Source of the DNA: an uncultured Bacilli bacterium
Lineage (GTDB): Bacteria; Bacillota_I; Bacilli_A; RF39; UBA660
Length of the DNA: 64,000 bases
Assembly: GCA_944373145.1 (NCBI GenBank)
Contig: CALWAL010000007.1
Span: forward strand, 26,005-90,004
Reading direction: 5' to 3'
Both the position numbers and the translations under genes were made by a program. Under the pieces are notes generated by a model, which was given only the letters and a program-made list of their open reading frames with translations, made no database searches and was not told the origin of the DNA. Positions 9,043 to 45,925 of this stretch are shown piece after piece (the stretch's first letter is position 1; the number at the start of each line of letters is the position of its first letter).

Positions 9043-9074
9043 AATAAAAGAATGTTATAATAAACTTGTTTTGA

Positions 9075-9290
9075 AAAAGCGAAGATGAAAGAGTAGTAAC
9101 AAATTAACTGATTAATAGAGAGTTCATGGTTGGTGGAAAATGAATATGAGGTATTTGTGAATTCACTTTCTAGCATTATAAAAGAAAATTTATAACGGTG
9201 ACGCGTTATAGTCTTAAGGCTAGTTTTGCTAGTGAATTAAGGTGGTACCACGTCAATCACGTCCTTATTAGGATGTGATTTTTTTTATAA
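9075..9290 (+). promoter_or_regulatory. Phe-specific T-box riboswitch leader
   Basis: AGAGAG and GGTTGGTGGAAA stem-I motifs. Specifier GAA-TTC-AC (UUC = Phe) at 9162-9164. T-box AATTAAGGTGGTACCACG at 9235-9252. Terminator AATCACGTCCT-tatt-AGGATGTGATT-T7 lies directly upstream of pheS. Confidence 0.93.
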
Positions 9291-29539: not shown

Positions 29540-29558
29540 TCCCAAGTAACACTAGGGA
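29540..29558. promoter_or_regulatory. Operator-like palindrome, copy 1
   Basis: TCCCAAGTaacACTAGGGA, 17/19 identical to 36924-36942. Confidence 0.6.
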
Positions 29559-30290: not shown

Positions 30291-30680
30291 ATGAAAGCAC
30301 ATTGGATTGTTAAACTTAAGAATCCATTTAATGGAATGAAGCTGGTTGCTTATGAAGATGGACGTGTCTATGTTGGTGGAACTGGACCTTTAATTGGTAA
30401 GCTTAAATCAACTTCTATGAAGAAAATTAGATATTACATCAACGAGTATGCCCATTATATCAAGATAGTTGGATATGAAGTTCAGGATATATATGGATTT
30501 ATAGCCAAGTTCTGGGATAATAGCAATGTTAAGCGTGATGACCTGACGGTTAAAGGTTGGCCTTACGAGCGTGAATTCCTAGAGATTATATTTAACAAGA
30601 ATTCATATCGTAAGTTTTTGATTGGTGATGGTGAGTTTGTTTCTATTATGCATGATTATTTATTAACTTCGTTAGATTAA
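30291..30680 (+). CDS. Hypothetical protein
   Basis: 129-aa ORF with a GAGG RBS upstream. Confidence 0.65.
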   Translation: MKAHWIVKLKNPFNGMKLVAYEDGRVYVGGTGPLIGKLKSTSMKKIRYYINEYAHYIKIVGYEVQDIYGFIAKFWDNSNVKRDDLTVKGWPYEREFLEIIFNKNSYRKFLIGDGEFVSIMHDYLLTSLD

Positions 30681-30695
30681 GCATGCAGAGGAATG

Positions 30696-30900
30696 AAACT
30701 GGTTTTGTTTTTATCAGCAACTGCTGCAGGTAAAACTGGTTCTGGGGATCGTTGCATGAAGCGTTGCTTGATTCGGTGGATCCGGCGTAGCTTGTAGGAG
30801 AGCAAGTTACCGGTTTTACCTAATCCTATTTGTAAGAACATTACCTAGTGGTATTTATACTTTTATATGGATTTTTAGTGCAACGAAGTGTGGGTTGCCT
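30696..30900. other. GC-enriched structured non-coding segment of unknown function
   Basis: 13-bp stem AGGTAAAACTGGT/ACCGGTTTTACCT (30728-30821) encloses sub-hairpins. A GCAAC...GTTGC hairpin lies near 30880-30898. Confidence 0.45.
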
Positions 30901-34721: not shown

Positions 34722-35420
34722 ATGACTAAAAAAATTGGAATTAAGAAAATTGAAACTAGTATTCCTTGTGATGTTTTTGTTTCGAGTATAGATGGAATCG
34801 TTGGTGCATCAAAAGGTGTTAATCTAGATGTTTACTTCACTTCTAAGAAAATTTATGAATTAGAAGATACCATGTTTGTTGTACTTGACATGTATGATGG
34901 TACCGGTGAAATGAAAGCTTTATTAGTGGGTAATAGAGATAAAGAATTTACTTCACTAGTTGATGGTATTAAGATTGATGCCGATGTAAGATATAGAATA
35001 AGTGGTAATGTTTCTATACCTTCTGACACTGATGATGTGGAGTTACCTTTTATGAATGATATTAAGAATAATAAGTTGTTTTGTATTTATGCTTTTCAAA
35101 GAAATCCTAAATCAACGTATTGTGAACTAAAACATCTTGCTAGGACAGAGATTGAGAAAGTTCGTGATGGTATAAGTACTGTTCAACAAAGTATTATTGA
35201 TAGTCTTAAGTATGATAAAAGTATTTCTATGGAAGAACTTCATATCATGTATTGTTTTGATGGTGATGGTGGTTTTGATCTAGACATACATCAATTTTAT
35301 GATTTATATGTAAGCCCATTGATAAAGAGTAAAGAAATTAAGGTGTGCAATTTAAAACAATGTTCTAAAGAGAAACCTTTACCAATGCCAGAATTTGAGC
35401 TTATGTATAATTGTAATTAA
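34722..35420 (+). CDS. Hypothetical protein with possible OB-fold
   Basis: GAGGAGG RBS. VLDMYDGTGEMKALL...YRISGNV resembles OB-fold nucleic-acid-binding domains. Confidence 0.6.
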   Translation: MTKKIGIKKIETSIPCDVFVSSIDGIVGASKGVNLDVYFTSKKIYELEDTMFVVLDMYDGTGEMKALLVGNRDKEFTSLVDGIKIDADVRYRISGNVSIPSDTDDVELPFMNDIKNNKLFCIYAFQRNPKSTYCELKHLARTEIEKVRDGISTVQQSIIDSLKYDKSISMEELHIMYCFDGDGGFDLDIHQFYDLYVSPLIKSKEIKVCNLKQCSKEKPLPMPEFELMYNCN

Positions 35421-35486
35421 TAGACAGAGATTAATTCTCTGTTTTTTCTAAAGACGCTGTAATTTTGTTTAATGTATGTTTTAATG

Positions 35487-35678
35487 TAGAAGATGCTACA
35501 TATGCTGTAGTACCTGAAGACAACATCAAGAGGTAGCTCCTCTTGTGAAGATACATGATGTGGTTTGATTCCGGTTAAATCATGGAAGGGTTATAAGTGA
35601 ACGATTGTCCCTAGTGCAGTAAACAAGCGCCGCCATTTAGAACTTTAGCAAGATAGACTTTGTAGTCTGTCTTTTTAT
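35487..35678 (+). ncRNA. Candidate ~190-nt structured non-coding RNA, family unrecognised
   Basis: Possible extended -10 (TGtTTTAAT) upstream, four successive hairpins and an intrinsic terminator AAGATAGACT-ttgt-AGTCTGTCTT-TTT. No ORF. Confidence 0.4.
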
Positions 35679-35831
35679 TTGGCCTAATATGGGTGTAAAC
35701 GAAATCATTTGATTTCTTTTATATTAGAAACTTGTCCAAAATGCGTTGCTTTTTATCTGAATTTAAGTGATTTATATAAACGAAATGTGAAAGATGTTTT
35801 CTTTTACACTTTAGAAAAGAGGTAATTTAAT

Positions 35832-36434
35832 ATGGAAAGCAAAGTATGGGGTTACTGCCGCTGTTCCACCAACGATTCAAAACAAGATGTCAAGTATCAG
35901 ATTGATGCATTAATTGATAAAGGTGTAGATATATCTAATATAAGGTATGAGTATATTTCTGGTAGGAAGGAACATAGACCTGGACTTGATGCACTGTTAG
36001 AAGAAATGAATGAGGGTGATACTTTAATAGTTACTGATATTACTCGTTTGTGTAGGAATACAAAGGTTTTGTGTGAAATAATTGATTTGATTATTGCAAA
36101 GAAATTTAGGCTTATTGTTGGAAGTATTGATATAGATTGTAGGAATGGTAGTTTAGATCCTATGATTGAAGGTATGCTAAAAATTAACGCGGTTTTTGGG
36201 GAGATGGAAGCAAAACTGAAAATACATCAAATCCATTTAGGATTAGCTACAGCTGTTAAGGCTGGTAAGAAGTTAGGACGTCCTAAGTCAACTTATGATG
36301 ATATTCCAAAGGTGTTTATGCAGTATTATCCTAAGTATAAGAATGGAACTCTAAACAAAATGGCTTTTGCTAGAGTTACTCAATTATCGTATCCAACTAT
36401 TTATAAGTACCTAGATATTGTTGAGAATGCTTAG
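35832..36434 (+). CDS. Small serine recombinase (resolvase/invertase family)
   Basis: GYCRCST catalytic motif, EYISG...RPGL, GDTLIVTDITRLCR, GKKLGRP and C-terminal HTH. Confidence 0.93.
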   Translation: MESKVWGYCRCSTNDSKQDVKYQIDALIDKGVDISNIRYEYISGRKEHRPGLDALLEEMNEGDTLIVTDITRLCRNTKVLCEIIDLIIAKKFRLIVGSIDIDCRNGSLDPMIEGMLKINAVFGEMEAKLKIHQIHLGLATAVKAGKKLGRPKSTYDDIPKVFMQYYPKYKNGTLNKMAFARVTQLSYPTIYKYLDIVENA

Positions 36435-36923: not shown

Positions 36924-36942
36924 TCCCAAGTAGGACTAGGGA
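36924..36942. promoter_or_regulatory. Operator-like palindrome, copy 2
   Basis: TCCCAAGTaggACTAGGGA, upstream of the microprotein-integrase genes. Confidence 0.6.
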
Positions 36943-37351: not shown

Positions 37352-39079
37352 ATGGATTCAATATGTTTTTATGCTCGTGTTTCCACGAAGCATGAATCTC
37401 AATTATATTCTTTTGAGAACCAAGTTCAATTATATGATATGTTTTTAGTAGAGCATTCTCATGAGAATTGGGAAGTATATGATAGATATTTTGACAAAGG
37501 TATAACAGGTACTTCGATGAAAAAGCGTAAGGGTTTTTTAAGGATGATAGATGATGCTAAACGTGGTTGCTTTAATACTATTATAACCCGTGAGGCTTCT
37601 CGTTTTGCAAGAAATGTTCAAGATACTCTTAATGTTTCAATTGATCTTGTTGAGAGAGGTATTAGACTTATTTTTATTGAAGATAAGCTAGATACAAAAC
37701 AAGATGAAGATTGGAAAAGTAGATTAACACAACTTGCTATTGATGCTGAAAAGCATTCAAAAACACAATCAGTCAACGCTAAAGCAGGTCAAAAAATATC
37801 TAGAGCGAAACATGTATTATATGGTAATGGGAATGTATTAGGTTATGATAGAGTAGGAAAGGAATATGTCATTAATGCTGAGCAAGCTAAGGTTGTTAGA
37901 TTGATTTTTGATATGTGTTTACGTGGAAGCGGAAGTAGAGATATTCAATACGAACTAGAGAAGAAAAACTATCTTACATCAACCGGTTTAGAGAACTGGA
38001 ACGTTGCAACCATCACAAGAATACTTCGTAACTCGATATATTGTGGTACTGTTGTTTACAATAAAAGTTATAGTAGTGATTATTTACATCAAAAGCGTAT
38101 TCTTAATAAAGGAGAAGTAGAGCAACTCGTTGTAGAAGATAGAGTTCCGGCAATTGTTTCTAAAGAAGATTTTGCTAGAGCACAGGAGATACTTGATAGC
38201 CATAAAACTAATAATAAAGGTGTAGTGACTACGGTTGGGAAACCACCGACTACTATCTTTGGGAAGAAACTCAAATGTAGTTGTGGATATAGTATGCAGA
38301 AAAAGAAATATCATACATATAAGGATGGACATACTGCCTATTGTTATCAATGCTATGACCAAGTAAATAGAGGCTCTTTTACCTCTAGAAAGAAACACGG
38401 TGTAAGTGTTGAAGGTGTTTGTGATACAAAAATAATTCCAGATTGGAAATTGAAATTAGCATCCTATACTATATTTGATATGTTAATTGATAGAAGAGAG
38501 GATATTATCGATATTATAGATAAACTACTAGAATCAGCGGTTGATGATGATAAAAATCTTCTATGTAGTGAGCAGGAGTTTTATGAAAAAGAAATAGAAG
38601 CCTTGAAGAGAAGGATATCTAAGTTAATGGATTTATATACTAATGAATATATAACTCTGAATGAGTTTAACGAAAAGAAGAAAGAAATAGATACCACAAT
38701 GAATGAATATAATGCTAAACTAAACAAACTTATAACTAATAAGTGTATAACTCCAAAAACAATTAGTGAACGTTTAGCTGAATGTAAAGATATAATTACT
38801 AATAGTTTTATGAATTATAAAGATGGAACTACATATGAGTTGTTAGTAGATTCTTTTGTTGATAGAATTATTGTAAGTAATGATAAGCTTGAATGGCATA
38901 TGAGATTAACAAAAGAAATTAAAATGCCGCTTGATGATGTTATAAGAGAGAAAGAAGTGTTTATAGGTACATTATCACTTACTAAAGATGACGCTACATA
39001 TTATTCTAAGTATTGCAATGATTTATCTAGAGTATGCTTTGATAAAGCATTGCTGGTTGATATATATCTTATGTTCTGA
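37352..39079 (+). CDS. Large serine recombinase (integrase)
   Basis: FYARVST...Q, YFDKGITGT, REASRFAR, LGYDR, recombinase domain (ILRNSIYCG), zinc ribbon (KCSCG...YCYQC) and coiled coil. Confidence 0.95.
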   Translation: MDSICFYARVSTKHESQLYSFENQVQLYDMFLVEHSHENWEVYDRYFDKGITGTSMKKRKGFLRMIDDAKRGCFNTIITREASRFARNVQDTLNVSIDLVERGIRLIFIEDKLDTKQDEDWKSRLTQLAIDAEKHSKTQSVNAKAGQKISRAKHVLYGNGNVLGYDRVGKEYVINAEQAKVVRLIFDMCLRGSGSRDIQYELEKKNYLTSTGLENWNVATITRILRNSIYCGTVVYNKSYSSDYLHQKRILNKGEVEQLVVEDRVPAIVSKEDFARAQEILDSHKTNNKGVVTTVGKPPTTIFGKKLKCSCGYSMQKKKYHTYKDGHTAYCYQCYDQVNRGSFTSRKKHGVSVEGVCDTKIIPDWKLKLASYTIFDMLIDRREDIIDIIDKLLESAVDDDKNLLCSEQEFYEKEIEALKRRISKLMDLYTNEYITLNEFNEKKKEIDTTMNEYNAKLNKLITNKCITPKTISERLAECKDIITNSFMNYKDGTTYELLVDSFVDRIIVSNDKLEWHMRLTKEIKMPLDDVIREKEVFIGTLSLTKDDATYYSKYCNDLSRVCFDKALLVDIYLMF

Positions 39080-45760: not shown

Positions 45761-45845
45761 TGGTGCGAGTGAAGGGACTTGAACCCCCATGCCTTGCGGC
45801 GCTAGATCCTAAGTCTAGTGCGTCTGCCAATTTCGCCACACTCGC
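45761..45845 (-). tRNA. tRNA-Leu(TAG)
   Basis: Reverse complement GCGAGTG...CTAGA-CTTAGGA-TCTAG...GGTTCAAGTCC...CACTCGC-ACCA, with a long variable arm. Confidence 0.95.
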
Positions 45846-45848
45846 AAG

Positions 45849-45925
45849 TGGTGGATCTTGTAGGACTCGAACCTACGACCGCCCGGTTATGAGCCGGATG
45901 CTCTAACCAACTGAGCTAAAGATCC
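45849..45925 (-). tRNA. tRNA with CAT anticodon, Ile2 (lysidine) type
   Basis: GGATCTTTAGCTCAGTTGGTTAGAGC...CTCATAA...GGTTCGAGTCC...GATCCACCA matches the Bacillus Ile2 pattern rather than elongator or initiator Met. Confidence 0.9.

Follow-up and report, generated by a model that had tools for sequence, protein, structure and literature searches.

The stretch 35447-35680 (+) of a 64,000-nt window of DNA from an uncultured Bacilli bacterium (contig CALWAL010000007.1; "the window" below means this whole stretch) appears to be a self-contained small non-coding RNA gene, carried as cargo by an integrated element, and we put the probability of this reading at roughly 0.58. The transcript would be about 190 nt long, with a conserved core of about 130 nt, and the family to which it belongs is probably a new, narrowly distributed, element-borne group of small RNAs that matches no described family. 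Genes of the element are arranged in the order three zinc-ribbon genes, a 232-aa open reading frame (ORF), a 411-nt non-coding stretch that holds the candidate, and a gene for a 200-aa small resolvase/invertase. A first-pass annotation had proposed an independent element-encoded non-coding RNA at this place. That proposal is borne out in part: the unit is an autonomous module with compensatory stems, its own terminator and no conserved ORF; its promoter is weak and one of its four hairpins has been redrawn. Since matching mutations keep the folds in related elements, a small RNA gene is probable. If transcribed, it would represent a new mobile-element small RNA family in an uncultured lineage of small-genome gut Bacilli, from which, to our knowledge, essentially no riboregulators are known.

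Anatomy of the module

The features of the module and its immediate surroundings are listed in Table 1. On the left the unit is bounded by T1, the terminator of the 232-aa gene, and on the right by an intrinsic terminator of its own, T2. Both had been annotated before, and both are present: T1, a 7-bp stem followed by T6, begins just past the stop codon of the 232-aa ORF, and T2, a canonical terminator, is called by a terminator scan, which finds 3 terminator-like sites in the region compared to 0.3 expected in shuffled sequences. T2 is kept with either of two resolvase types downstream. T1 is kept in loci that carry the RNA, with the exception of G601, the most divergent copy, in which no terminator separates the upstream ORF from the RNA.

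The minimum free energy (MFE) fold of the window allele, computed on the single sequence, yields H1, H2, H3 and T2, and thus reproduces three hairpins of the first-pass annotation at the same coordinates. The fourth, GGG..ATAA/TTGT-CCC, survives in part. Its GGG and CCC segments covary, but five of the eight distinct core sequences that we aligned have mismatches in ATAA/TTGT, and the comparative data favour P4 instead, a longer stem that the first-pass annotation did not have. As the CCC segment lies inside the loop of P4, GGG/CCC pairing and P4 can coexist only as a pseudoknot, a putative topology. The P4 loop contains the invariant segment AGUGCAGUAA, and the 3′ strand of the stem is formed by the GC-rich AAGCGCCGCC (GCGCCGC). 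Recurring TGAAGA/GGAAG linkers, which had been thought to join the hairpins, turn out not to be conserved; only GTGAAGATAC is invariant.

At the 5′ end, the sequence TGnTTTAAT that had been put forward as a possible promoter is present, in the form TGtTTTAAT, and is kept in 7 of 8 alleles, the TG being lost in L042; it offers an extended −10 element only. The RNA would probably start near 35491-35493 (AAGAUG).

Table 1. Features of the RNA candidate and flanking genes (positions in the window; RNA features predicted).
Feature	Position	Strand	Description
232-aa ORF	34722-35420		adjoins T1 at its stop codon
Non-coding stretch	35421-35831		411 nt; holds the RNA candidate
T1	35423-35446	+	terminator of the 232-aa gene; ACAGAGA-TTAAT-TCTCTGT, 7-bp stem + T6; left boundary of the module
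Putative extended −10	35477-35485	+	TGtTTTAAT; recognised by sequence only
H1	35494-35512	+	TGCTACA/TGTAGTA; 7-bp hairpin, loop UAUGC; in MFE fold
H2	35524-35547	+	CAAGAGG/CCTCTTG at 35527-35545; 6-7 bp, loop UAGCU, plus two outer pairs
H3	35554-35584	+	10-bp stem rich in G-U, 35559-35568/35575-35584; loop UUCCGGU; in MFE fold and RNAalifold
H3, alternative register	35554-59/35579-84	+	CAUGAU/AUCAUG, 6 bp
Possible pseudoknot	35588-35590/35609-35611	+	GGG/CCC; CCC is the first bases of the P4 loop
P4	35597-35608/35623-35633	+	GUG-AA-CGAUUGU/ACAAGCG-C-CGC, 14-nt loop; from RNAalifold and pair counts
AAGCGCCGCCA	35626-35636	+	part of G+C-rich 3′ domain
T2	35650-35680	+	intrinsic terminator of the module; 10-bp stem, 4-nt loop, U5; right boundary
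200-aa small resolvase/invertase gene	35832-36434	+	same strand as the RNA candidate, 150 nt downstream

Compensatory changes in the stems

Relatives of the module were retrieved by searches anchored on neighbouring proteins and on the conserved pattern. Their alignment shows substitutions that preserve pairing in each of the helices. In H1, a G-U pair of some alleles is G-C in others. In H2, the window/L042 type differs from the L009/G601 type by two fully compensatory pairs, one A-U replaced by G-C and one G-C by A-U. This hairpin is perfectly palindromic in all sequences but that of L042, where one U-U pair is mismatched. H3 shows three wobble-compatible changes in its 10-bp register across the eight sequences; the changes from GA to AG and from UC to CU that distinguish G601 count as two wobble-compatible substitutions in this register, or as two full compensations in the CAUG/CAUG register. 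For P4 the eight-sequence consensus is GUG-AA-CGAUUGY/RCAAKCG-C-CRC, with one pair that covaries between C-G and U-A and another that changes from U-G to U-A in L042 and G601. The G601 stem also contains an inserted U-A pair, with a U added to the 5′ strand and an A to the 3′ strand, amounting to a compensatory base-pair insertion. Two mismatches occur in P4: the window allele has A-G, and L044 has C-A. Finally, GGG/CCC covaries: where the window alleles have G-C, L009-type alleles and G601 have U-A, and all cells are paired.

Taken over the core alignment, the refined structure has 98% of cells paired, compared to 35–45% with the partners slid, and four of its pairs are changed on both sides, compared to 0–1 in the slid controls. 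Because the refined structure was built on the same sequences, the test was repeated with the hairpins of the first-pass annotation, which had been drawn from one sequence beforehand; compensatory changes among the collected homologues were found with these hairpins too, with P about 0.001. Expected numbers of retained double changes and of broken pairs were obtained by placing the same substitutions at random. Between the window and L009 (41 pairs, terminator included), 3 double changes were kept compared to 0.26 expected, and 2 pairs were broken compared to 6.8 (P 0.001). The core of the window allele compared with that of G601 gave 4 kept (0.42 expected) and 1 broken (5.3 expected; P 0.0005), and the cores of L009 and G601 gave 1 kept (0.24 expected) and 1 broken (4.2 expected; P 0.22). 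Disruptive stem substitutions are 3–5 times rarer than expected. Based on these alignments, the fold has modest but real comparative support.

Strand specificity and folding as RNA or DNA

The (+) strand folds more stably than its complement, with an MFE of −51.5 compared to −39.5 kcal/mol. H3 uses four G-U pairs, which form only on the (+) strand, and this hairpin is lost when DNA parameters are used; RNA is therefore favoured over single-stranded DNA (ssDNA) or duplex DNA. H1, H2 and P4 persist under these parameters, and folding as DNA gives a z-score of −2.0.

These last values are among the points in favour of a cis-acting ssDNA element, sso-like or oriT-like, used in ssDNA replication or transfer. 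Like the ssoA origins of rolling-circle plasmids and integrative and conjugative elements, the module is non-coding, strand-specific, heavily folded and about 150–200 nt long, and relatives of the element have replication genes, including one for a DnaB-like helicase, beside the slot that the module occupies. The H2 loop TAGCT is also reminiscent of the CS-6 motif of ssoA. We nonetheless consider an ssDNA element improbable. Scans of the element and its relatives with Pfam and PHROG show no rolling-circle Rep or relaxase, although several ORFs remain unannotated; the conserved, G-U-rich H3 folds only as RNA; and the module is missing from most sister elements. Moreover, unlike ssoA, the unit is bracketed by rho-independent terminators on its own strand, one of which is exchanged for another in G601, as expected of a transcript and not of an origin.

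Distribution and modular mobility

About 25 contigs carry the module, in three allele classes that are 80–88% alike. The cores of the window type and the L009 type are 85–88% identical, with a few single-base variants within each. In these relatives T1 and the T-tract of T2 delimit the module, and it is precisely at the T-tracts that homology ends. Its neighbours vary on both sides. Upstream lies the 232-aa gene in the window, L009, L023, L042 and L044, or an extra 199-aa gene in L025 and L024; downstream lies the 200-aa resolvase gene, an unrelated 205-aa resolvase gene (L025, L043, L044) or an insertion sequence (IS; L010, L049). In other loci (L011-L013, L017, L055-L064) the same resolvases lack an RNA upstream, and in L017 T1 is joined directly to the resolvase upstream region. 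This upstream region, the 150-nt spacer of the window, is conserved independently of the RNA. In other elements the slot is filled by ORFs of 199 and 90 aa (L014, L026) or by a 26-aa ORF with a promoter and terminator of its own (L020). To judge by these arrangements, the slot that separates the cargo operon from the recombinase is a hot spot, or swap point, for cargo, and the module is a tidy example of non-coding cargo exchange, with its own boundaries and terminator, moving between element backbones.

Variation at the equivalent of 35421-35831 was seen in L014, L017, L020, L025, L026, L065 and L075, where the slot is empty or holds the RNA or ORFs. The recombinase that follows the slot varies as well, among resolvases of 200, 205 and 243 aa and tyrosine recombinases of 315–323 aa. 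No terminal inverted repeats or target duplications were found around the module, and it was dismissed as a transposon end or a miniature inverted-repeat transposable element.

G601 was detected with a covariance model of the first alleles among 401 genomes sampled from the order, at 103 bits. Its core is about 85% identical to the others, from AAGAUG through H2, H3 and P4 to CGCCACC. H1 is missing, and is thus dispensable for the core. A promoter-like site, TTGACT-N18-ATTAAT, differs from that of the window and is positioned so that transcription would begin at the same AAGAUG; in place of T2 there are another terminator and a different extra hairpin; and the neighbours are an ORF of the 145-aa family upstream and a gene for a 323-aa tyrosine recombinase 45 nt downstream. 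Preservation of the core while promoter, terminator and both neighbours are replaced is what would be expected of a functional transcribed unit.

The same observations bear on a cis-regulatory leader, attenuator- or riboswitch-like, that would control the downstream recombinase through T2. The layout is the classic one for such leaders, a structured domain followed by an intrinsic terminator, and a recombinase gene on the same strand lies downstream in all contexts, at 150 nt in the window and 45 nt in G601. Yet there is no fixed downstream gene: the module precedes unrelated recombinases, serine as well as tyrosine ones, the resolvases in question are also found where it is absent, and in L010 and L049 an IS stands between it and the resolvase. 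The 150-nt spacer, with its independently conserved resolvase upstream region, points the same way. Inspection of the alignments and of the G601 fold revealed no conserved segment complementary to the terminator's 5′ arm that could serve as antiterminator, and the terminator of G601 is wholly different. A leader function therefore merits little credence; with the module in such varied company and the resolvases also found without it, both a resolvase leader and a res site can be ruled out for the RNA candidate.

When about 1500 genomes, drawn from the family, the order, the class and the relatives of G601, were searched with covariance models, true copies came only from the genome of the window and from G601. 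No match was found by blastn in phage and plasmid collections, no true copies by pattern scans and a protein-anchored scan of IMG/VR, and no RNA in 16 loci anchored on the tyrosine recombinase or in further loci with 232-aa homologues. Covariance-model matches in L031 and L077 lie inside ORFs and were set aside as spurious.

Three of the related loci carry an IS3-family element (OrfA, 119 aa with a helix-turn-helix; OrfB, 269 aa with an rve domain) within the module: L010:1490-2828, L049:3443-4790 and L043:1-200. In L010 and L049 two independent copies, in opposite orientations and in different RNA alleles, are inserted at the identical TTG in the T2 loop (equivalent to 35660 in the window). 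The same element lies in the T1 loop of L043 (equivalent to 35434). It appears that this IS3-family element targets the loops of terminator hairpins.

Arguments against an RNA gene

A number of results weigh against the reading as an RNA gene, and many of them would fit a functionless stretch of intergenic filler, in which chance hairpins hitch-hike on a recently spread element and compensation comes from templated mutation in a few lineages. The core, at 85–88% identity, is no better conserved than its flanks, as neighbouring genes are 91–99% identical. There are only three allele classes, so that the compensations reflect few evolutionary events and could be co-inherited; in the short H2, template-switch correction of quasi-palindromes could mimic compensation. 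The RNA is rare and sporadic, being present in 2 of the approximately 1500 genomes sampled and in a minority of sister elements, and this rarity, together with the toleration of IS insertions in T2, indicates that it is dispensable. Folding energy of the window allele is not significant alone (z −1.68, 9 of 200 shuffles as good); the L009 allele gives z −3.18, with 0 of 200 shuffles as good. A consensus scan for sigma-70 promoters makes no call at TGtTTTAAT, nor at the promoter-like site of G601. Since no terminator separates the RNA from the upstream ORF in G601, a product of the 3′ untranslated region is possible there. Lastly, no antisense target stands out in the genome or the element.

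Even so, we regard filler as unlikely. P4, with its 14-nt loop, and the long-range GGG/CCC pairing covary although they are poor substrates for hairpin template switching, which is an unlikely source of their changes. G601 retains the core precisely amid different surroundings, and disruptive stem substitutions are, as noted, rarer than expected. The core is also 42% G+C within AT-rich spacer DNA, compared to 26.5% for the intergenic DNA of this genome, placing it in the top 3.2% of intergenic windows; those ranking higher include a tRNA-gene stretch and 30680-30900 of the same element.

Known RNA families and coding potential

No match to a known family had been recognised in the first-pass annotation, and the database searches agree. 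Rfam 15 gives nothing in the region at gathering thresholds and only noise below them, the best sub-threshold match being SraG on the opposite strand, at 20 bits compared to the 50 required and driven by T1. ARAGORN detects no tRNA or tmRNA in the region, its only calls being tRNA-Leu and tRNA-Met at 45761-45925; a T-loop-like GGUUUGAUUCC lies 55 nt from GCCGCCA. Nothing points to a ribozyme. A type III antitoxin RNA (ToxI-like) was rejected: 35447-35680 contains no tandem repeats, and the downstream genes are recombinases.

The region is non-coding. All six frames are interrupted by stop codons, and the alleles differ by 1-nt indels that put every frame out of register. No ORF is conserved, and no coding remnant emerged when the region was compared by tblastx with the host genome and all related loci. 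Reading TGA as Trp was dropped, since the frames lack conservation and table 11 gives intact host genes. Short ATG-initiated frames are present, and a 24-nt match to H1 lies inside the gene for a CxxC protein of another genome (L031), as might be expected of a decayed or very small protein-coding gene; but there is no ribosome-binding site, and tblastn and tblastx find nothing beyond an 8-residue stretch in H1. In view of these data a coding origin is scarcely credible.

Small RNAs borne on islands and prophages of Firmicutes offer a comparison, for example the Spr RNAs of Staphylococcus aureus pathogenicity islands (SprD) and the small RNA "morons" of prophages. Like these, the module is a stand-alone unit of 100–200 nt on a mobile element, with several hairpins, its own rho-independent terminator, no ORF and a sporadic, accessory distribution. 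It shows no sequence or Rfam similarity to them, and in place of simple seed-bearing hairpins it has a possible pseudoknot and a long stem with an internal loop.

Possible partners and mode of action

Searches for a target of the RNA were negative. No complementarity of at least 14 nt was found in the host genome by blastn-short, and RNAduplex against 1284 start regions and the whole element gave interactions no better than those of shuffled RNAs. Mimicry of a CRISPR repeat, as in an RNA anti-CRISPR, was discarded after a crude repeat scan of the genome showed no CRISPR-like array.

The palindrome TCCCAAGTAGGACTAGGGA occurs at 36924-36942 and 29540-29558 of the window and at L011:3659 and 4672; it is invariant, and every related element examined has one or two copies of it downstream of the resolvase. 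In the window allele, TCCCTAGT of the P4 loop (35608-35615) is an exact half-site of this palindrome; other RNA alleles have no half-site. Pairing between the P4 loop and the palindrome was rejected for want of co-variation, the palindrome being invariant beside either RNA allele.

This half-site, the H2 palindrome that is perfect in all sequences but L042, and a position directly upstream of a small resolvase/invertase gene, where the inverted repeats of res or hix sites are found, could together suggest a DNA site for recombination or binding, namely a res/hix site for serine recombinases or an operator for a repressor. We consider this very improbable. The module is tied to no single recombinase and assorts independently of the resolvase; its hairpins are unrelated in sequence, and the region yielded no family of repeated half-sites; H3 relies on G-U pairs, which make its pairing strand-asymmetric and not a DNA palindrome; and the one half-site does not co-vary with the invariant palindrome.

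As a small RNA gene, the module would be accessory cargo, comparable to a phage "moron", in a variable slot between the cargo operon and the recombinase and backbone genes. Its carriers seem to be integrative or plasmid-like elements that form one family in small-genome, uncultured gut Bacilli, and such elements were found in chicken, human and ruminant metagenomes. Transcription would start near 35492, the RNA would fold into H1, H2, H3 and the long P4, possibly pseudoknotted, and the transcript would end at T2. We infer that it would most likely act in trans, as a stable, structured riboregulator whose invariant single-stranded segments (the P4 loop AGUGCAGUAA, the linker GUGAAGAUACAU and ACAACA) may contact an RNA or protein partner.

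A more speculative proposal, which we hold to be doubtful, is that the core (H2, H3, P4, the GGG/CCC pseudoknot and the invariant 10-nt loop) forms a compact tertiary fold that is traded as cargo, acting as a decoy or sponge for a host defence protein or a nucleic-acid-binding protein, or as a ligand-binding or catalytic RNA of a new class. As a decoy or sponge, it could have as one candidate partner the 232-aa protein next door, which is weakly oligonucleotide/oligosaccharide-binding (OB)-fold-like. For now the practical value of the RNA is limited. The family is narrow, and the RNA is dispensable.

Genomic setting and other features

The source of the window is a 1.29-Mb metagenome-assembled genome of 28% G+C from an uncultured gut Bacilli-type bacterium. 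The integrated element ends at a large serine recombinase gene (37352-39079). The 232-aa protein encoded beside the RNA candidate has no Pfam, PHROG or PADLOC match, and its AlphaFold model is poor (predicted local distance difference test score, pLDDT, 45). Residues 30–100, which are better predicted, give weak matches to OB folds, namely the PolC OB domain, RMI1/2, the anticodon-binding domains of aminoacyl-tRNA synthetases, and RPA. Homologues of this protein mostly have no RNA beside them.

In some sister elements the cargo operon opens with a 401-aa PDDEXK_4 protein (L025:483-1688; also L065-L071), which matches the PADLOC candidate defence family PDC-S26 with an E value of 2e-18; on the basis of this match, the variable cargo may relate to defence. 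Ordinary host features of the window include a T-box leader at 9073-9269 (105 bits) and the adjacent genes for tRNA-Leu(TAG) and tRNA-Met, on the minus strand at the position given above. Within the same element as the RNA candidate, 30680-30900 is a second ORF-free stretch, with 45% G+C compared to the intergenic mean of 26.5%, which places it with the highest-ranking intergenic windows of this genome; a further structured RNA, or else an origin, could lie there.

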